Origin: Microgenomates group bacterium Gr01-1014_7
GTDB lineage: Bacteria > Patescibacteriota > Microgenomatia > Daviesbacterales > UBA10151
Assembly: GCA_007376405.1 (NCBI GenBank)
Contig: VMGD01000003.1
Coordinates: 336 to 64,335, forward strand
Direction: 5' to 3'
DNA: 64,000 nucleotides
Shown here: in pieces, positions 50,422 through 63,361 of the stretch
Layout: every line of letters begins with the position of its first letter
Position numbering within the stretch: position 1 is the stretch's first letter
Program-made: the position numbers and the translations under genes
Notes under the pieces: generated by a model
Told to the model about the DNA's origin: nothing
Databases searched by the model: none
What the model saw: the letters and a program-made list of their open reading frames with translations, nothing else

Positions 50422-52134
50422 ATGACATTTGCTAAACTTTCCCAATATTTTGAAAAACTTGAAGAAACATCCTCCAGACTTATCTTAATTGATATTTTAT
50501 CCGAACTTTTTTTTAAGGTGAGAGCTGATGAAATTGGGATGGTTTCCTATCTTTTGCAGGGAAGAGTAGCCCCATTTTATGAACCAATTGAGATGGGAAT
50601 GTCGGAAAAGCTGGTAGCTCAAGCCATGGCCCGAGCTTACGGGGTGGATCGCGAGCAAGTGCTCAAGGAATATGGAAGAGCGGGGGATTTGGGGAAGGTG
50701 GCGGAGAAATTTGCAAAAGAATTAAGAATCAAGAATAAAGAATTAAGCGTAGAAGAAGTGTTTAAAATCTTAACTGAAATTGCCAAAACTACAGGGGATG
50801 GGACCGTAGAAAAGAAAATAGCTCTTCTTGCAGGTTTACTCTCAAAAATGGATGGAGTTTCGGCTAAACACCTGGTAAGAATTCCCCTTGGGGTACTGCG
50901 GCTGGGGATAGGTGATCCAACTATTTTGGATGCTTTTTCCCTCGCATACGCTCGGGACAGGGCCAAACGTCCGATACTTGAAGCTGCATATAATAAAGTT
51001 TCGGATTTGGGTTTAGTGGGAGAAACTTTATCGAAGGGCGGGCTAAAGGCTGTTGAAAGATTAAGTGTAACAGTCGGGCGTCCAATAAGATCACAACTGG
51101 CAGAAAGATTACCAACTCCTGAAAAAGTTATTGAAAAAATGGGAACTGTTAATGCGCAAAGAAAATTAGATGGCTTTAGGGTGGCTATACATAAGAAAGC
51201 TAGCGAAGTAAGGCTTTTTTCCAGGAATCTGGAGGAAACAACCCCCATGTTTCCGGAAATAGTTGAAGGAGCAAAGAAACAAATTAAAGCTAAAAGTGTA
51301 ATTCTTGATGCCGAAGCCATTGGTTTTAATCCTATTTCCGGTGAATTTTTGCCCTTTCAGGAAACAACTCAAAGAAGAAGAAAGTATGGCATTGAAGAAA
51401 TGGCCAAAAAAATCCCTCTTAAGACTTTTTGTTTTGATATTTTATACAAGGATGGGACATCCTTGATCGATCAGCCTTTGGCTGCTCGATTAAAAACGTT
51501 AAAAAATACAATCAAAGACGGAGAAGTGCTTTTTCCCGAACTGGGAATAGTGGTTGAGACGGCTAAAAAATTGCAAATAATGCTGGATGAGAGTATTTCG
51601 GAAGGACTAGAGGGTTTGGTTGTTAAGAGGTTGGATAGCAAATATGAGGCCGGAGCCAGAAATTTTAACTGGGTAAAACTAAAAAGGCACTCAGATGGTG
51701 AGCTTAGAGATACAATTGATTGCGTGATTTTGGGTTATATTTATGGCAGGGGAAAAAGAGCATCATTCGGTGCGGGCGCGCTACTTGTTGGTGTTTACGA
51801 TGAGTCGCAAGACGAATTCGTGACAGTCAGTAAAATAGGAACCGGTTTAACAGATGAAGAGTTTAGGGAAATTCGAAGGAGGGCAGATAAAATTAAGGTT
51901 GATAAGCAGCCCGCTAGAGTCAATTCCATTTTAAAGCCTTCAGTTTGGATTGCTCCGGAAATTGTAATTGAAGTTTTGGCAGATGAAATAACCAGAAGCC
52001 CGATTCACAGCGCAGGCTATGCCCTGCGTTTCCCCAGACTTATTAAATTCCGCGAGGCCGACAAAAAAGCCGAAGACGCAACTACGGTTAAAGAGTTAAT
52101 TGAGATGTATCATCAGCAGTTTAAGAAAATATAA
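50422..52134 (+). CDS. ATP-dependent DNA ligase (archaeal/eukaryotic LigB type)
   Basis: KLDGFRV (KxDG adenylation motif I); three-domain length of 570 aa. Confidence 0.8.
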   Translation: MTFAKLSQYFEKLEETSSRLILIDILSELFFKVRADEIGMVSYLLQGRVAPFYEPIEMGMSEKLVAQAMARAYGVDREQVLKEYGRAGDLGKVAEKFAKELRIKNKELSVEEVFKILTEIAKTTGDGTVEKKIALLAGLLSKMDGVSAKHLVRIPLGVLRLGIGDPTILDAFSLAYARDRAKRPILEAAYNKVSDLGLVGETLSKGGLKAVERLSVTVGRPIRSQLAERLPTPEKVIEKMGTVNAQRKLDGFRVAIHKKASEVRLFSRNLEETTPMFPEIVEGAKKQIKAKSVILDAEAIGFNPISGEFLPFQETTQRRRKYGIEEMAKKIPLKTFCFDILYKDGTSLIDQPLAARLKTLKNTIKDGEVLFPELGIVVETAKKLQIMLDESISEGLEGLVVKRLDSKYEAGARNFNWVKLKRHSDGELRDTIDCVILGYIYGRGKRASFGAGALLVGVYDESQDEFVTVSKIGTGLTDEEFREIRRRADKIKVDKQPARVNSILKPSVWIAPEIVIEVLADEITRSPIHSAGYALRFPRLIKFREADKKAEDATTVKELIEMYHQQFKKI

Positions 52135-52174: not shown

Positions 52175-52702
52175 ATGCAAAATGAAGGCTACAAAAATCT
52201 TCCCTTTTTTAAACAGACAGAAATAATCTATGATTTTACCGTAGACTTCGTTAAAAAATATATTGACTACAAATCCCGTACCAAAGACCAGATGGAGCAG
52301 GCAGCCCGCTCCGGGAAACAGAATATAGCTGAAGGATATTTACAAAAAAGTTTAGAGGGAAGAATTAAGTTGGTGGGTGTAGCTCGCGGCTCTTTAGAAG
52401 AGCTTTTAAATGATTATTTGGATTACTTGCGTCAGCATAGGTTAAAGCTTTGGGATATGAATTCTGCGGAAGCCCGAAAAGTCCGAAGCTTCGTATATAA
52501 CAGTTATAACGATTATAAAAATTATAAAGATTATATTGAAAACCCGGAAAGCGCAGCTAATGCTATGATTTGCCTAATTAACCAAACCAACCGCTTACTG
52601 GATCAAAAAATCCGCTGGCTAGAAGAAAAATTTATTAATGAAGGCGGATTCAGGGAAAACCTTTTTAAAAAGAGGATGGAAAAAAGAAAAGCAGTGAGGT
52701 AA
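52175..52702 (+). CDS. Four-helix-bundle protein (TIGR02436, the so-called 23S rRNA IVS protein family)
   Basis: FKQTEIIYDFTVDF...AEGY...GSLEEL family pattern; start trimmed to ATG 52175. Confidence 0.55.
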   Translation: MQNEGYKNLPFFKQTEIIYDFTVDFVKKYIDYKSRTKDQMEQAARSGKQNIAEGYLQKSLEGRIKLVGVARGSLEELLNDYLDYLRQHRLKLWDMNSAEARKVRSFVYNSYNDYKNYKDYIENPESAANAMICLINQTNRLLDQKIRWLEEKFINEGGFRENLFKKRMEKRKAVR

Positions 52703-52711
52703 AATGCCTGC

Positions 52712-55330
52712 ATGGCATATGTAGCTGATTTGCATATTCATTCCAGATTTTCCAGGGCTTGTTCACAACAACTTAATATTCCAAATTTAGTAGAGTGGGC
52801 CAAATTAAAAGGCATAAATCTTTTAGGGACAGGGGATTTTTTACACCCACTTTGGCTAACAGAATTAAAACATCAGCTTAAAGAAGATGGGTCAGGGTTT
52901 TTAAAGGGTAAAGCGGAAAGCGTAAAGGGGGAAGAGGTAAGATTTGTTCTGACAGTAGAGATTGCTTCAATGTATTCTCATGGAGGCAGAGGCAGAAGAA
53001 TCCATAATCTGGTTTTTATGCCCGGCTTTGAGGCTGCTGAAAAATTCCAAAAAGCACTTTTAGCAAGAAGAGCAACTTTAGCTTCAGATGGTAGGCCAAT
53101 TGTAGGTATTCCCTCAAAAGAACTTCTGCAGATGGCGCTAACTGCTGACAAAAAAGCCATTTTTATTCCGGCTCACTGTGTCTTACCCGATACCCAAGTG
53201 CACACTGTTAAAGGAATGCAAGAAATACAAAGCATAAAGCCAGGTGATTTAGTTTATACCCACAATAATCGTAAAAGAGAGGTAACAGAAGTCATCAAAC
53301 ACGAGCACGACGGGACTTTATACAAAATTCAACCTTGGTATTTCTCTCCTGGTTTAGAAGCGACCGAAGAACACCCTTATTATGGTTTCCATATAAAATA
53401 TTGTCCTTCAACTGGTTCTCCTTGCCTTCCTACAGAAGCACATAAAAGAAGATGTAAACATAAATTTTATGAACAATATATCCCAATATGGCTTCCTGCA
53501 CAGGATTTAAGAGATGGAGATGTTTTGGTTTTTCCTAGATTTACTAATACTACACCAATGCCAACGCTTTTTTTAGATAAAGAATTAGCATATCAAGCCG
53601 TAGGTGAGTTAATCAAAACAGGAGGTTCAAGAGGCCATATTTTTAACCAGCAAATTCAAATTGATGAGAGCTTTTGCAGATTAATTGGCTACTATTTAGC
53701 TGAAGGTTCCCTTAGTACAACAAAAGGACACATAAGCCTCGCATTTAATCAGAGTGAGAGTGTGTATATTGAAGATGTAAAGCAATTGATTGAGAAAGTA
53801 TTTGGAATAAAGCATATACGCATATATAGAAGATTAAATAATAAGGGGGTGGAGATAACCATTTATTCTAAATTAATTTCAGAACTTTTTGCCAAACTTT
53901 TTTATACAGACAATTCGCATAAAGCATTTAATAAGAATTTACCTGACTGGATGCTTCATTTGCCAGAATTTCTGCAGGCTCAAATCTTGCTAGGATGGTG
54001 GAGGGGTGATCATGGTTATACTGTTTCGCGATCTTTAATGAATCAAATGAAAGTTATTTGTTTACGTCTGGGGATTGTTCCCTCGATAGGTGTTGACAAA
54101 TCAGAGAATCATCTTAAGAGAGGAAATCATATATATCAGGATAGAATTATCAAAGCAACTTCAGATCTTTATTACTTCTCCGGGCTTGCTTTTTTTGAAG
54201 ATAAATATAATCTTTTAAGTGATCCTGTATTTGAGGAATCTAAGCGTAAACTTACAAGAAGACATGGATGGATTGATAAAGACTATATCTATATGCCTAT
54301 CCGTAAAATTACCAGGAGGAAGTATACAGGGGAGGTTTTTAATTTGGAGGTAGACGAAGATAATTCCTATATAACTGAATTTGCTGCAGTACATAATTGC
54401 TGGACGCCCTGGTTTGGTCTATTTGGGTCCGAAAGTGGATATGATTCGCTAGAGGAGTGTTTTGAGGATTTAACAGACCATGTGTATGGGATTGAAACCG
54501 GGCTCTCAAGCGATCCGGCTATGAACTGGAGGATAAAGGAACTTGATAACCGCTCAATTATTTCCTGTTCTGATGCGCATTCCTTGCCAAATCTGGGAAG
54601 AGAGGCAACGGTGATAGAAGGGGAATTTAGCTATAATGGTTTATGGAAAGCTGTTTCTAACCCTTCTATCATTCTGAGGCCGAAGGCCGAAGAATCCCCC
54701 ACGAATGTGGGTTCTGACATTCGTCAGAGGTCCTTCGCTAAAGCTCAGGACGACAATAGAATTGTCGGTACCATTGAATTTCATCCTGAGGAAGGGAAAT
54801 ATCATTATACCGGACACAGAAACTGCGGAGTTAAATATGATTCGGAACAGGAAGTTGCAAACGGGGTTATTTGTCCAAAGTGCAAAAGACCCTTAACCGT
54901 GGGAGTAATGAGTAGAGTAGAGAAGATCGCAGGGCGATCAGTAGATGAAGTAGGGATGTTAGAGGATGAGCAGGGAATAATCAAAAGCAAGGTCTTTAAT
55001 AGGCCGGGATACCGGATGTTAGTCCCGCTTTTGCAGATTATTGCGGAAGCGCTACACTCTACTCCAACAAGCCAAAAAGTATTAAACGAGTATAAAAAGT
55101 TAGCAATTAATCTGGGTGGAGAAATTAAGGTTTTAACTAAGGTTGATGTGTCGGAAATTGCCAAACTTTCCGGCCCCAGAATTACTGAAGGGGTGGAAAG
55201 AATGAGAAAAGGTACTATTGTAATTGATCCCGGATATGATGGAGTCTATGGAGTGGTAAAAATATGGCCCGATGGGGAATCGATTGAAGAAAGTAGCGCA
55301 GAAGCTCCACAGTTGGGATTGTTTGATTAG
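52712..55330 (+). CDS. PHP-domain phosphoesterase with a C-terminal Zn ribbon (COG1379-like), interrupted by an intein
   Basis: N-terminal DLHIHSRFS PHP motif; CPKCKRPLTVG zinc ribbon; intein at codons 156-562. Confidence 0.65.
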   Translation: MAYVADLHIHSRFSRACSQQLNIPNLVEWAKLKGINLLGTGDFLHPLWLTELKHQLKEDGSGFLKGKAESVKGEEVRFVLTVEIASMYSHGGRGRRIHNLVFMPGFEAAEKFQKALLARRATLASDGRPIVGIPSKELLQMALTADKKAIFIPAHCVLPDTQVHTVKGMQEIQSIKPGDLVYTHNNRKREVTEVIKHEHDGTLYKIQPWYFSPGLEATEEHPYYGFHIKYCPSTGSPCLPTEAHKRRCKHKFYEQYIPIWLPAQDLRDGDVLVFPRFTNTTPMPTLFLDKELAYQAVGELIKTGGSRGHIFNQQIQIDESFCRLIGYYLAEGSLSTTKGHISLAFNQSESVYIEDVKQLIEKVFGIKHIRIYRRLNNKGVEITIYSKLISELFAKLFYTDNSHKAFNKNLPDWMLHLPEFLQAQILLGWWRGDHGYTVSRSLMNQMKVICLRLGIVPSIGVDKSENHLKRGNHIYQDRIIKATSDLYYFSGLAFFEDKYNLLSDPVFEESKRKLTRRHGWIDKDYIYMPIRKITRRKYTGEVFNLEVDEDNSYITEFAAVHNCWTPWFGLFGSESGYDSLEECFEDLTDHVYGIETGLSSDPAMNWRIKELDNRSIISCSDAHSLPNLGREATVIEGEFSYNGLWKAVSNPSIILRPKAEESPTNVGSDIRQRSFAKAQDDNRIVGTIEFHPEEGKYHYTGHRNCGVKYDSEQEVANGVICPKCKRPLTVGVMSRVEKIAGRSVDEVGMLEDEQGIIKSKVFNRPGYRMLVPLLQIIAEALHSTPTSQKVLNEYKKLAINLGGEIKVLTKVDVSEIAKLSGPRITEGVERMRKGTIVIDPGYDGVYGVVKIWPDGESIEESSAEAPQLGLFD
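53177..54397 (+). mobile_element. Intein (407 aa) with a LAGLIDADG homing-endonuclease domain
   Basis: Block A: Cys1 followed by VLPDTQV; two LAGLIDADG blocks (LIGYYLAEGS, ILLGWWRGDHG); C-terminal ...AAVHN followed by the extein Cys. Confidence 0.75.
54673..54754. repeat. Palindromic element family A, copy 1 (82 bp), in frame inside the PHP/intein gene C-extein
   Basis: Conserved termini TCTGAGGCCGAAGGCCGAAGAATC ... TCCTTCGCTAAAGCTCAGGACGAC (imperfect TIRs); internal hairpins CCCAC/GTGGG and CTGAC/GTCAG. Confidence 0.6.
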
Positions 55331-61313: not shown

Positions 61314-62321
61314 CTAAGAAAGATGATTCTGGCTCAATCTCGTTCCTTCTCCAGGATTATTAACAATAATTTCTTTTACCTCTTTTATGCTCTTTATTTT
61401 ATTCACAACTTTTTTTACATTTTTTTGTTCACAGATTAAATGAATATCCTGGCCGGTATTGATGGTAAAGTATACCGGTATGCCTTCTGCCCTCCAATGA
61501 GATACCAGTTTCATAATCTTTAAGGTTCCGGGGGTCCAATATATGAGCGGAGGATATTGGGTAAGCATGATGGCGTGAAGCTCCAAGGCTTCTGCCTCAG
61601 CCAGCTCTCCTAAAGACTTAAAATTTTTCTCTTTAATAAGTTGTTTGACTAGCTTATCTTTCTCTTTCATATGGGAAAGACGAATGGACATGAATGGGGA
61701 AGATTTTGCTGCTTTGTGTCCTACTGATGTAGGAACTTCTTTTTTACCTTCCGATACTATTGCCACCACATCACAAATTGCCCAATGATCCGGAGGAAAA
61801 ATAGAAACTGCATAGGAGGTTTCTGATGTATCTCCATCCAGCCACTCCACAAACCCTCCCGGAATTGATCTGCAGGCAGAACCTGATCCTTGTCTGGTCA
61901 GTATAGATAGTTCTTTTTCAGATAAATCCAAACCGGCGGCTTTGGATGTAGCTAAAGTTAAGGCAGCAAAACCTGAAGCAGAAGATGAAAGCCCTGTTCC
62001 GATAGGAAAATTGTTTTTAGAAACTACTTTGGCTTTAAGGCTAATTTTAGCCATTTTTCTAACTCTATCCAGGTGTTTAATGACTCTTTGTGCTTCACCT
62101 TCTTCAACACCTCCGCCATTAATAATTACTTCATCTCTTGTATATTTAGGGGAAAATTCTACAGTAGTAGTAGTTAATAAATTTGAAAGACACATGGAAA
62201 TACTTCCATTTTCAGGAAGCCTTAAAATTTCATCCTTTTTACCCCAGCATTTGGTAAATGCAATATTAGATGGTGCCACAGCAGTTGCCTTTCGGCTGCG
62301 CTCAAGGTCAATGACTTTCAT
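61314..62321 (-). CDS. mvaD: Diphosphomevalonate decarboxylase
   Basis: NIAFTKCWGKKD (MVD signature NIAxxKYWGKRD); GHMP-family fold. Confidence 0.75.
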   Translation of the reverse strand: MKVIDLERSRKATAVAPSNIAFTKCWGKKDEILRLPENGSISMCLSNLLTTTTVEFSPKYTRDEVIINGGGVEEGEAQRVIKHLDRVRKMAKISLKAKVVSKNNFPIGTGLSSSASGFAALTLATSKAAGLDLSEKELSILTRQGSGSACRSIPGGFVEWLDGDTSETSYAVSIFPPDHWAICDVVAIVSEGKKEVPTSVGHKAAKSSPFMSIRLSHMKEKDKLVKQLIKEKNFKSLGELAEAEALELHAIMLTQYPPLIYWTPGTLKIMKLVSHWRAEGIPVYFTINTGQDIHLICEQKNVKKVVNKIKSIKEVKEIIVNNPGEGTRLSQNHLS

Positions 62322-63361
62322 TCAATTCTTACTCCTTCCGCATTGGTTTTGATATTAATTACTTGTCCACCGGCTTCGGTTATGGCTTTTTTTATAGCCT
62401 GTTTACCCTGAACGGAGTGAAGGGCAATCATGCAATCTCCAACTCCTGCTCCGGAAAGCTTTGCTCCATAAGCCCCGCCGTCCCTGGCAGCATAGATCAT
62501 CCTGCTAAGTTTTTTGCCTTCAACTCCCAATGTAGCCAGATATCCTTCATTAAAATTCATCAGTTCTCCTAAACTTTCCCAATCTTCCTTTAGTATAGCT
62601 TTTTTTGCTTGTTCTACTAATTGGCCAATTTGGTCATAAACATTACCTATAACCCATGGGTATTTTTTTGCTTTTTGAGCCACCTCGTCAATAATTCTAA
62701 CCGTATCAAACTTAATCCCACTATATCCTACTATTAATGGCAAAGTGTTAATTTTCAATGGCTGGATAACTTTACCGGGACTTACAAAGTATAAAGTTCC
62801 TCCATATATAGCTGCGGCAACATCAAATCCGGATCCTTTTCCCTGAATATCCAAAACAGTTTTGTAAGCCAGATTAAATATCTGTTTATTATCTAAATTA
62901 GCACCAGTTAACTGCGACAAAGCTTTAATTACACAAACAGTTGAGGCAGAAGAGGAGCCAAAACCAAACTCCGATGAAAATTCAGACTTTGTGACAATCT
63001 TGATTCCAAGATTGTCATTCTGAGGCGAAGCCGAAGAATCTCTCAATTTATTTGAGGGTCGCATTCGCGACAGATCCTTCGCTAATCGCTCAGGATGACG
63101 GTTCAGAAAGTTCTTCACCGTCATCTCCACAAACTTGGCTCCTTTGGGAATTTCTCCTTTACCCAAATGAGTTATTGGTTTTTGGTAATTGGTTATTTGT
63201 ACGTCAGGAGCATCAAGCTGGAAAATTTTATCATCAGTTAATTCTACAGTAGCTGTCATTCTCTGATTTACAGCCGTAACCAGGCATGGTTTGCCATAAA
63301 CCACAGCATGTTCACCCAAAAGCATTAATTTCCCCGGAGCAGAAACTGTAATCTTTTTCAT
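62318..63361 (-). CDS. mvk: Mevalonate kinase-like GHMP kinase; carries a palindromic element at 63019..63099 in frame
   Basis: GHMP ATP-binding motif (EFGFGSSSAS); operon with mvaD. Confidence 0.6.
   Translation of the reverse strand: MKKITVSAPGKLMLLGEHAVVYGKPCLVTAVNQRMTATVELTDDKIFQLDAPDVQITNYQKPITHLGKGEIPKGAKFVEMTVKNFLNRHPERLAKDLSRMRPSNKLRDSSASPQNDNLGIKIVTKSEFSSEFGFGSSSASTVCVIKALSQLTGANLDNKQIFNLAYKTVLDIQGKGSGFDVAAAIYGGTLYFVSPGKVIQPLKINTLPLIVGYSGIKFDTVRIIDEVAQKAKKYPWVIGNVYDQIGQLVEQAKKAILKEDWESLGELMNFNEGYLATLGVEGKKLSRMIYAARDGGAYGAKLSGAGVGDCMIALHSVQGKQAIKKAITEAGGQVINIKTNAEGVRIE
63019..63099. repeat. Palindromic element family A, copy 2 (81 bp), inside mvk (minus-strand gene)
   Basis: Termini TCTGAGGCGAAGCCGAAGAATC ... 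TCCTTCGCTAATCGCTCAGGATGAC; internal hairpins CTCAAtttaTTTGAG and TCGCattcGCGA. Confidence 0.6.

Follow-up and report, generated by a model that had tools for sequence, protein, structure and literature searches.

An intein directly after a zinc-ligand histidine of a predicted endonuclease Q from a Microgenomates bacterium is another member of a known allele family

The endonuclease-bearing inteins that have been solved structurally, TliVMA and PhoVMA (7qsu, 7qss, 7qst), PI-PkoII (2cw7), PI-SceI (1vde) and PI-PfuI (1dq3), are built from a two-part Hint domain with an inserted double LAGLIDADG domain and reside in V-ATPase, DNA polymerase and RNR hosts. Closer to the locus described here by its host family is the Mja hyp1 intein, which we take to be the intein in Methanocaldococcus jannaschii MJ0043 (InBase / Swiss-Prot entry). 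A further intein is carried by TBCH5v1_0436 (ALM74405.1) of the hyperthermophilic archaeon Thermococcus barophilus CH5; the annotation of this protein goes no further than 'hypothetical' or 'DOD-type homing endonuclease domain protein', and no experimental characterisation of the protein was found. The host protein without an intein is represented by endonuclease Q (EndoQ) of Pyrococcus furiosus (PfuEndoQ; 5zb8, 7k30-7k33), in which a PHP domain is followed by a Zn-binding domain and by a helical domain at the C-terminus. The Zn ligands of its PHP site are His8, His10, Glu76, His84, His139 and Asp193, and the mutant of one of them, H139A, is nearly inactive (PMC5961232). In the literature searched (EndoQ, MJ0043, COG1379 and Patescibacteria/DPANN intein topics) we found no paper describing the EndoQ intein reported here, and no experiments that demonstrate splicing or cleavage by a member of the EndoQ allele family.

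We analysed a stretch of 64,000 nucleotides, referred to here as the window, from a metagenome-assembled genome of an uncultured groundwater bacterium, a Microgenomates/Daviesbacteria-like Patescibacterium. The open reading frame at 52712..55330 (all features lie on the plus strand unless stated otherwise) encodes 872 aa plus a stop codon, and we read it as the whole precursor of an EndoQ interrupted by one intein. The public record of exactly this protein is TSC88072.1, to which GenBank gives the product name "Mja hyp1 intein". The intein had been predicted at 53177-54397, and this range proved exact: motifs, profiles, an AlphaFold2 model and Foldseek comparisons place an intein of 407 aa at 53177..54397 (precursor aa 156-562, from CVLPDTQV to AAVHN), with the flanks IFIPAH before it and CWTPWF after it.

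The identity of the host was set by comparing the spliced extein with PDB and NCBIfam entries. Alignment to 5zb8 delimited an N-extein that holds the first part of the PHP domain (52712..53176, aa 1-155) and a C-extein that begins with Cys+1 in CWTPWF (54398..55330, aa 563-872). When joined, the exteins aligned with PfuEndoQ (5zb8) at E 2.7e-41, and no gap was introduced over the junction (PAH/CWTPW against PAH/AFTPW, the slash marking the insertion site), so that the exteins are contiguous as anticipated. The E-values for 5zb8 and 7k30 were 1e-40 to 3e-41, and the alignment ran over two stretches that together cover the PHP, Zn-binding and C-terminal helical domains, in the same order as in PfuEndoQ. 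The score for TIGR00375 on the host was 162 bits, under the equivalog cut-off of 326.6; the host homologs carry the name 'endonuclease Q family protein' and their Pfam family is MJ0043_C. These comparisons identify the host, at the level of sequence, as EndoQ, predicted to be a lesion-specific DNA-repair nuclease. The original prediction had spoken of a PHP-domain phosphoesterase with an insertion in the active-site region; the position of the insertion stands, and the host is to be replaced by the repair nuclease EndoQ (5zb8/7k30, E 3e-41). The same result removes the claim of an unusual intein host, because a DNA-repair nuclease falls within the usual nucleic-acid-metabolism host class.

All six PHP Zn ligands of PfuEndoQ are aligned and identical in the window EndoQ, and His195 is conserved as well. 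Five of the ligands lie in the N-extein, namely H8, H10, the Glu of LTVEIAS, the His of RRIHNL and, as its final residue, His155, which in the alignment to 5zb8 corresponds to PfuEndoQ His139. Since the intein stands between this Zn-ligand histidine and the next residue, the PHP active site cannot form until the precursor has been spliced. The window protein differs from PfuEndoQ at the C4 zinc site, where the first Cys (Pfu Cys249) is a His in the window protein (YTGHRNC...CPKC) and in all Daviesbacteria homologs, the remaining three Cys being kept. It also differs at the C-terminus: archaeal homologs have a PIP-box-like QKxLx[DE]F at this end, whereas the window protein ends in QLGLFD (55310..55327), which resembles the bacterial beta-clamp-binding motif and is a candidate for one.

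The anatomy of the intein conforms to class 1, and every motif that had been named beforehand was found, from Cys1 with VLPDTQV and the two LAGLIDADG blocks to the C-terminal HN followed by Cys. Block A, C1-VLPDTQV, provides the N-terminal nucleophile Cys1 (53177..53200), and block B contains the TxxH motif as T63-E-E-H66-P (53363..53377), whose T, E, H and P do not vary across 16 aligned alleles. Blocks F and G, GEVFNLEVDEDNSYITEFAAVHN, occupy intein aa 385-407 (54329..54397; motif and TIGR01443) and end in His406-Asn407, after which Cys+1 follows. In the 16 aligned alleles C1, T63-x-x-H66, H406-N407 and C+1 are all present and invariant. In block F the usual Asp is replaced by an invariant Asn (N389), and the usual His is Asn or His among alleles; such variations (Asn for Asp, Asn for His) are tolerated in known inteins. 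The N-terminal Hint half contains a Cys-rich insert, KYCPSTGSPCLPTEAHKRRCKHK, with C76, C83 and C93 (53396..53464; sequence and allele alignment), which is kept in most alleles and missing from one, P0132. The LAGLIDADG homing-endonuclease domain spans approximately intein aa 160-340 (53654..54196), as judged from Pfam LAGLIDADG_3 and structural matches. Within it lie motif 1, FCRLIGYYLAEGS (53672-53710, intein aa 166-178), with E176 in YYLAEG, the conserved Lys253 (53933-53935), and motif 2, LLGWWRGDHGYT (53987-54022, intein aa 271-282), with D278 in GWWRGD; among alleles D278 is invariant, E176 nearly so, and K253 invariant or nearly so.

Profile scores for the endonuclease and for the splicing domain were unequal. 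Pfam LAGLIDADG_3 scored 35.4 bits against a cut-off of 22.5, and TIGR01443 (intein_Cterm) scored 17.3 bits on the precursor and 13.9 on the intein alone against 15.6. Pfam Intein_splicing (26.8 vs 35.8) and Hint_2 (22.2 vs 28.4) were significant by E-value and below their gathering scores. The AlphaFold2 model of the intein had a pLDDT of 91.8 and a pTM of 0.91. Its best PDB matches in Foldseek were all endonuclease-bearing inteins, 7qsu (E 4e-20), 2cw7, 1vde and 1dq3, and it also matched the mini-inteins gp41-1, NpuDnaB and Mxe GyrA. According to this model the N- and C-terminal parts of the intein are predicted to form the Hint (Hedgehog/intein) fold, and the endonuclease domain is predicted to be a pseudo-dimer of the alpha-beta-beta-alpha-beta-beta-alpha fold; the endonuclease part matched PI-PkoII, PI-SceI, I-DmoI and I-AniI in Foldseek, and a sequence match of the intein to PI-PkoII was obtained at E 1.3e-5. 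Over the solved endonuclease-bearing inteins the matches ranged from E 4e-20 to 1e-11 with TM scores of 0.5-0.68 at a sequence identity of 12-15%. The window intein has the class-1 residues (Cys1, TxxH, HN and Cys+1) in common with them; its family is unlike them in the three-Cys insert after block B and in the Asn that takes the place of the block F Asp. A search of all six-frame open reading frames of the window with hmmsearch detected no further intein of the same family.

The Mja hyp1 intein belongs to the same host family, as judged from MJ0043_C on the host homologs and from the GenBank product name, whereas the host here is a bacterium. In every allelic intein tested alone, the last approximately 135 residues matched TIGR00375 columns 2-134 and the match ended exactly at the junction, as would be the case if one of the seed sequences of this profile had a homologous intein in the same position. 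This indirectly supports the view that the window intein is homologous to the Mja hyp1 intein and may occupy the same site. Two intein searches (profile and exhaustive phmmer) did not place MJ0043 within their best 120 or 150 matches, so it would be at best a distant allele. The T. barophilus CH5 intein has the same architecture and the same site (LIGPAH/C...LHN/CFTPWTALYKEYDSLKE, with CFTPW after the junction), between the positions of PfuEndoQ His139 and Ala140, and together with short extein flanks it is 38% identical to the window intein.

The insertion is not a rare event, as the distribution of alleles shows. Roughly 150 alleles were found altogether. At least 93 protein clusters contain allelic inteins with the pattern PAH/C...HN/C[WMLF]TPW, and the same site is filled in at least 50 species-level genomes (50 among the 119 genome-scan matches listed), which span Patescibacteria, Omnitrophota, DPANN archaea and T. 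barophilus. Matches of the scan pattern CAYAAYTGYTGGACNCCNTGG in many Pseudomonas genomes were set aside as noise, since they come from a conserved out-of-frame stretch with short open reading frames and no intein. One protein, EndoQ P0255, has two inteins, the second of them at the Asp193/His195 motif. The EndoQ inteins at the site described here constitute one allele family common to Patescibacteria, Omnitrophota, DPANN archaea and Thermococcales, and its presence in both domains requires that either the intein by itself or the entire EndoQ gene has crossed between the domains at least once. A survey for intein-free homologs, which had been proposed as a check, detected the intein in none of the 120 host homologs that are closest (64-77% identity), all of which have Ala, Ile, Val or Leu at +1; Cys+1 is confined to intein-bearing alleles. 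Among related genomes, the closest relative, L120, has a syntenic EndoQ locus with the intein-free site GCTTTATTTATTCCAGCCCATGCCTGGACTCCCTGGTTTGGAATTTTTGG, and the more distant L033 (the Daviesbacteria allele) carries the intein as the window does.

Pairwise comparison with L033 gave pN/pS of 0.157/0.711 (intein), 0.143/0.688 (N-extein) and 0.218/0.762 (C-extein), and the lowest pN of the whole gene was that of the endonuclease part (0.13); by this estimate, which is rough because dS is saturated, the intein and its exteins appear to be under purifying selection. Over 33 alleles compared in pairs, intein and extein identities were correlated (r = 0.53) and gave no indication that a transfer had occurred recently. 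The best cross-domain pair had an intein identity of 58.7% vs an extein identity of 51.9%, and recent cross-domain homing is not supported, as no cross-domain pair among the 33 alleles had an intein much more similar than its extein. We consider it quite unlikely that the intein is still homing between co-resident ultra-small groundwater bacteria and archaea; if it were, the intein could trace cross-domain DNA exchange.

Taken together, the segment is very probably a canonical class-1 intein with a double-motif LAGLIDADG homing endonuclease in the EndoQ gene, its splicing and cleavage being inferred. After translation, Cys156 of the precursor (intein Cys1) would undergo an N-S acyl shift, the resulting thioester would be attacked by Cys563 (+1), Asn562 would cyclise with the assistance of His561, and an S-N shift would ligate the exteins into an EndoQ of 465 aa. 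The predicted junction is AIFIPAH-CWTPWFGLFGSE (also given as AIFIPAH-CWTPWFGLFGSESGYDSLEE), and the ligated protein would bear a Cys where intein-free alleles have Ala, Ile, Val or Leu. The freed intein would be expected to act as a site-specific endonuclease that cuts intein-free EndoQ alleles around the boundary of TTTATTCCAGCCCAT and GCCTGGACTCCCTGGTTTGG, and recombinational repair would then copy the intein into the cut allele (homing).

Some of the same observations could be read as those of an intein that splices while its endonuclease is no longer active, a vertically inherited resident whose homing cycle has reached its decay phase. The correlation of intein and extein identities and the failure to see recent transfer are what such an intein would give, and two alleles of 308 aa and 345 aa show that shortening happens. 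We nevertheless hold this to be unlikely, because the catalytic residues E176, K253 and D278 are conserved as described, the endonuclease part is the most constrained at non-synonymous positions, and absence from L120 together with presence in the farther L033 fits ongoing gain and loss. Domestication as a conditional switch, in which redox or zinc would control splicing and hence EndoQ activity through Cys1, Cys+1 and the three-Cys insert, is very unlikely in our judgement. Insertion directly at the Zn-binding catalytic His, a conserved Cys-rich insert adjoining block B and purifying selection on the intein would all suit a switch; they do not separate it from ordinary selfish persistence, however, since insertion at active sites is the rule for inteins. 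Moreover, most EndoQ genes, including the 120 nearest, have no intein, so that the host does not need it, and allele P0132 manages without the Cys insert.

It is highly improbable that the segment does not splice at all, being either a retained domain insertion or a free-standing LAGLIDADG gene fused into an inactivated EndoQ pseudogene. The Pfam splicing-domain scores below the gathering thresholds would fit such a segment, but in a confident model, whose match to solved inteins extends over the full length, a Hint half lies on each side of the endonuclease, the residues Cys1, TxxH, HN and Cys+1 are conserved in more than 90 alleles, Cys+1 is restricted to the alleles that bear the intein, and the exteins retain all EndoQ catalytic residues under apparent purifying selection. 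An assembly chimera would be conceivable from the metagenomic source of the genome, but its probability is close to nil given an unbroken reading frame, synteny with L033 and L120 on both sides, and the same architecture in dozens of assemblies made independently, as well as in the genome of an isolate (T. barophilus).

The class-1 intein is accompanied by further insertions at this locus. As had been predicted, the C-extein contains a palindromic (MITE-like) element (54669..54754; RNA fold z = -3.7), inserted in frame in the loop that links the PHP domain to the Zn-binding domain, where it adds about 28 residues (ILRPKAEESPTNVGSDIRQRSFAKAQDD) that PfuEndoQ does not have in this linker. L033 and most homologs lack it; L120 has an orthologous copy. 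A second copy of the same family (63015..63098; z = -6.0) lies in frame in a mevalonate-kinase-like open reading frame (62318-63361, minus strand). It was recovered by a looser blastn search; strict 24-mers with up to 3 mismatches detected no copy beyond the query itself. Both copies are short, have terminal inverted repeats and preserve the frame of the gene in which they lie. In these respects the element of approximately 86 bp is like the Rickettsia palindromic elements (RPE), which are multi-copy, have terminal inverted repeats and are inserted in frame at surface loops with the open reading frame left intact; RPE belong to another sequence family and host phylum, and with two copies seen in this window the mobility of the present element is inferred. 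Upstream of EndoQ, the four-helix-bundle gene that had been noted at 52175..52702 was confirmed with TIGR02436 (31.6 bits against a cut-off of 24) and the TIGR04258 suffix (65.1 bits against 40). Only in the window genome does it lie between the EndoQ gene and an ATP-dependent DNA ligase gene (50422..52134), which related genomes keep as the neighbour upstream of EndoQ; it is absent from this position in L033 and L120.

The window intein is thus real but ordinary, another member of the known EndoQ allele family, and its significance beyond annotation is slight and would not surprise an intein specialist. The gene should be read as an intein-interrupted EndoQ; the labels 'hypothetical PHP phosphoesterase' and 'UvrD helicase' do not fit it, nor does 'intein' alone. 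EndoQ joins the DNA-repair genes whose catalytic centre, here directly after the Zn ligand His139, serves as an intein homing site, with an allele that is widespread in Patescibacteria, DPANN and Omnitrophota. The locus also illustrates three independent insertions, of an intein, a palindromic element and a four-helix-bundle gene, around one gene in a reduced genome.

The precursor is a single long ORF of 872 aa (52712–55330, forward strand), in the translation of which CVLPDTQV begins at residue 156 and AAVHN finishes at residue 562. These junctions place the intein at 53177–54397, between IFIPAH upstream and CWTPWF downstream, and agree exactly with the original prediction. Every motif that it had named was found in the sequence, namely the N-terminal Cys1, block B (T63-E-E-H66-P), two LAGLIDADG motifs (FCRLIGYYLAEGS, intein residues 166–178, and LLGWWRGDHGYT, residues 271–282) and blocks F/G (GEVFNLEVDEDNSYITEFAAVHN) followed by Cys+1. 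GC content is lower in the intein (0.35) than in the exteins (0.40 and 0.44). Comparison of alleles revealed small deviations from the textbook set of motifs: block F has an invariant Asn where Asp is usual and either Asn or His at its His position, and a conserved insert of three Cys (C76, C83 and C93) follows block B. Nearly all alleles have this insert (53396–53464, intein residues 74–96), with the pattern K-x-C-x(5-7)-C-x-P-x(8-10)-C; one allelic protein, P0132, lacks it. The AlphaFold2 model is confident across this insert (pLDDT 85–90), which may be a loop that binds metal or contacts DNA.

Profile searches gave mixed support. LAGLIDADG_3 exceeded its cut-off of 22.5 bits with a score of 35.4, and with the precursor TIGR01443 (intein C-terminal splicing region) reached 17.3 against 15.6, whereas the Pfam splicing-domain models had significant E-values and scores below their gathering scores. 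The identity of the element was settled by the structural and comparative evidence, which is decisive. An AlphaFold2 model of the intein, built from an alignment of 24 relatives, had a mean pLDDT of 91.8 and a pTM of 0.91. All 16 of its best PDB matches were endonuclease-bearing inteins, including TliVMA (7qsu, E 4e-20), PI-PkoII (2cw7), PhoVMA, PI-SceI and PI-PfuI; mini-inteins and free LAGLIDADG enzymes such as I-DmoI ranked next. The endonuclease part also matched PI-PkoII at the sequence level (E 1.3e-5).

Joining of the N- and C-exteins produced a protein of 465 aa that matched Pyrococcus furiosus endonuclease Q (PfuEndoQ; PDB 5zb8, 7k30-33) over all three domains with an E-value of 2.7e-41. 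This match identifies the host as a lesion-specific nuclease of DNA repair, a host class that is not unusual; the core of the original prediction was right, and its claim of an unusual host was wrong. The exteins form a contiguous PHP domain, with an ungapped alignment across the junction (pahCWTPWfglf versus PAHAFTPWTSLY). The intein had been placed in the PHP active-site region, and it indeed lies in the catalytic centre of EndoQ, directly after the residue that corresponds in the alignment to PfuEndoQ His139. Catalytic centres are the customary location of inteins. In the PfuEndoQ crystal structure the two catalytic Zn ions are bound by His8, His10, Glu76, His84, His139 and Asp193, and the H139A substitution almost abolished activity (PMC5961232). 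All six PHP Zn ligands and His195 are kept in the window EndoQ. The C4 zinc site of PfuEndoQ differs in the window enzyme, where its first Cys (Cys249) is replaced by His (YTGHRNC, region of 54880–54900); the same His was seen in all Daviesbacteria homologs inspected, giving an H-C-C-C site. Comparison of 41 alleles showed a C-terminal Q-x-x-L-F, similar to a beta-clamp-binding motif, in bacterial EndoQ proteins (QLGLFD in the window, 55310–55327, forward strand; QKTLF, QLSLF or QASLF elsewhere) and a C-terminal QKxLx[DE]F, similar to a PIP box, in those of DPANN archaea. The C-terminus in L089, a locus labelled Pacearchaeota, is of the bacterial type, which may reflect mis-binning or transfer.

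A survey for intein-free alleles was positive. The best 120 homologs of the spliced extein, mostly from Candidatus Daviesbacteria, were all 406–472 aa long and 64–77% identical, with product names of 'endonuclease Q family protein' or, mistakenly, 'UvrD'. The +1 position in intein-free homologs is Ala, Ile, Val or Leu, and never Cys. The closest relative, L120, has an empty site (...TTTATTCCAGCCCAT|GCCTGGACTCCCTGGTTTGG...) in a contig syntenic with the window, in the order Fic, ligase, EndoQ and phosphoribosyltransferase. The ATP-dependent DNA ligase of L120 (2118–3983) was called as two ORFs of 354 and 250 aa, and that of the window as one 570-aa ORF (50422–52134); a frameshift, an error in sequencing or a truly split gene could explain the two calls. 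The four-helix-bundle gene reported just upstream of EndoQ was recovered at 52175–52702 (TIGR02436 with a TIGR04258 suffix, GC 0.37). It lies between ligase and EndoQ only in the window and is missing there in L120 and in the intein-bearing Daviesbacteria allele L033, where the two genes are 17–57 nt apart; it looks like a separate insertion.

The palindromic element predicted in the C-extein was likewise found, as 86 bp at 54669–54754 bounded by terminal inverted repeats (fold z-score -3.7). The linker that connects the PHP domain to the Zn-binding domain gains about 28 residues from this element, which is common to the window and L120 and absent from L033 and most homologs. A second copy (63015–63098, z = -6.0), predicted to form a strong hairpin, is in frame in a mevalonate-kinase-like ORF (62318–63361, minus strand), to which it adds the residues ...RHPERLAKDLSRMRPSNKLRDSSASPQNDN... 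Most EndoQ homologs have no insert in the interdomain loop, and alignment of other Daviesbacteria homologs showed translations of different palindromic repeats there, with at least four different inserts (e.g. VIPANAGIQL...LDPRLRGDD, VILGRSEATTPES... and YPMRHAELVSASQ...). The occurrence of different palindromic inserts at one position makes this loop an insertion hot spot.

Searching with the intein alone detected 24 proteins in other Patescibacteria, each of which had the junctions PAH|C...HN|C[WM]TPWF. A profile of 16 alleles matched 93 allelic clusters, 57 of which had both junctions, with intein lengths of 308–430 aa. The junction HNCWTPW was also scanned across one genome per species, and at least 50 true EndoQ inteins were present among the 119 matches listed. 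These belonged to Patescibacteria (Davies-, Shapiro-, Gottesman-, Roizman-, Woyke-, Nealson- and Wildermuthbacteria, Paceibacterota and Saccharibacteria), Omnitrophota, DPANN archaea (Micr-, Woese-, Pace-, Parv- and Nanoarchaeota and Altarchaeum), one MAG from Methanosarcinales and some MAGs with a Gammaproteobacteria label. Exhaustive phmmer added Thermococcales EndoQ, in the same cluster as Thermococcus barophilus CH5 TBCH5v1_0436, with the site LIGPAH|C...LHN|CFTPWTALYKEYDSLKE, exactly PfuEndoQ His139|Ala140. Pseudomonas matches to the 21-nt junction pattern (L001, L002 and about 55 others) were rejected as noise unrelated to inteins; they represent conserved DNA in which a short open frame encodes ...PVTHNCWTPWKARKKTR. 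One JGI metagenome protein (P0255, 1331 aa) carries two inteins in one EndoQ, at the PAH|C site (residues 132–552) and, as a different intein, directly after SNSDSH| (residues 614–1128, ending ITHN|SPSH). The latter position, at the Asp193-x-His195 motif, thus gives this active centre a second site of insertion. The closest non-allelic relatives (about 30–35% identity; P0271, P0286, P0289, P0295 and P0304) interrupt thioredoxin-reductase-like proteins within their redox-active motif, CATC|...|CDG; SufB, NifU/IscU, 4Fe-4S ferredoxin/NuoI-like proteins and glycosyltransferases harbour others.

Allele alignments showed little or no variation at the endonuclease residues E176, K253 and D278. Between the window and L033 the intein is 76% and the extein 71% identical, with pN/pS values of 0.157/0.711 for the intein, 0.143/0.688 for the N-extein and 0.218/0.762 for the C-extein, and a pN of 0.13 for the endonuclease part. 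The intein is thus as strongly constrained as the host gene, an estimate that is only qualitative since dS is saturated. The intein is shared with L033 and absent from L120, which is nearer to the window by extein identity (77% versus 71%); such patchy presence is the pattern expected of homing-cycle gain and loss. Intein and extein identities were correlated (r = 0.53, 33 alleles). Pairwise comparison of these 33 alleles yielded no cross-domain pair with an intein far more similar than its extein, the best having 58.7% versus 51.9%, and recent inter-domain homing is therefore unsupported. Alongside the observed anatomy, fold, conservation and allele distribution, we infer the splicing and homing steps. 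Cys156 would undergo an N-S acyl shift, followed by trans-thioesterification onto Cys563, cyclisation of Asn562 and an S-N shift that would yield active EndoQ with a Cys adjoining the Zn-ligand His. Once released, the intein would cleave EndoQ alleles with an empty site, and repair would copy it into them.

Host homologs carry the Pfam family MJ0043_C. When allelic inteins were searched each alone, their last ~135 residues matched columns 2–134 of NCBIfam TIGR00375 (28–48 bits), ending at the junction, as expected if the seed of this old model has a homologous intein at the same site. The N-terminal columns of TIGR00375 thus appear to contain intein-derived signal, and intein fragments could be mis-annotated as 'TIGR00375 family protein'. 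We take the intein-bearing seed to be M. jannaschii MJ0043, whose intein, 'Mja hyp1', has figured in listings ever since the genome paper; the indirect evidence of the profile match suggests that it and the window intein occupy the same site. The public record of the window protein already labels the intein, as the identical 872-aa TSC88072.1 has the product name 'MAG: Mja hyp1 intein [Microgenomates group bacterium Gr01-1014_7]'. The window intein adds one more member to an allele family of inteins that is already known and is widespread.
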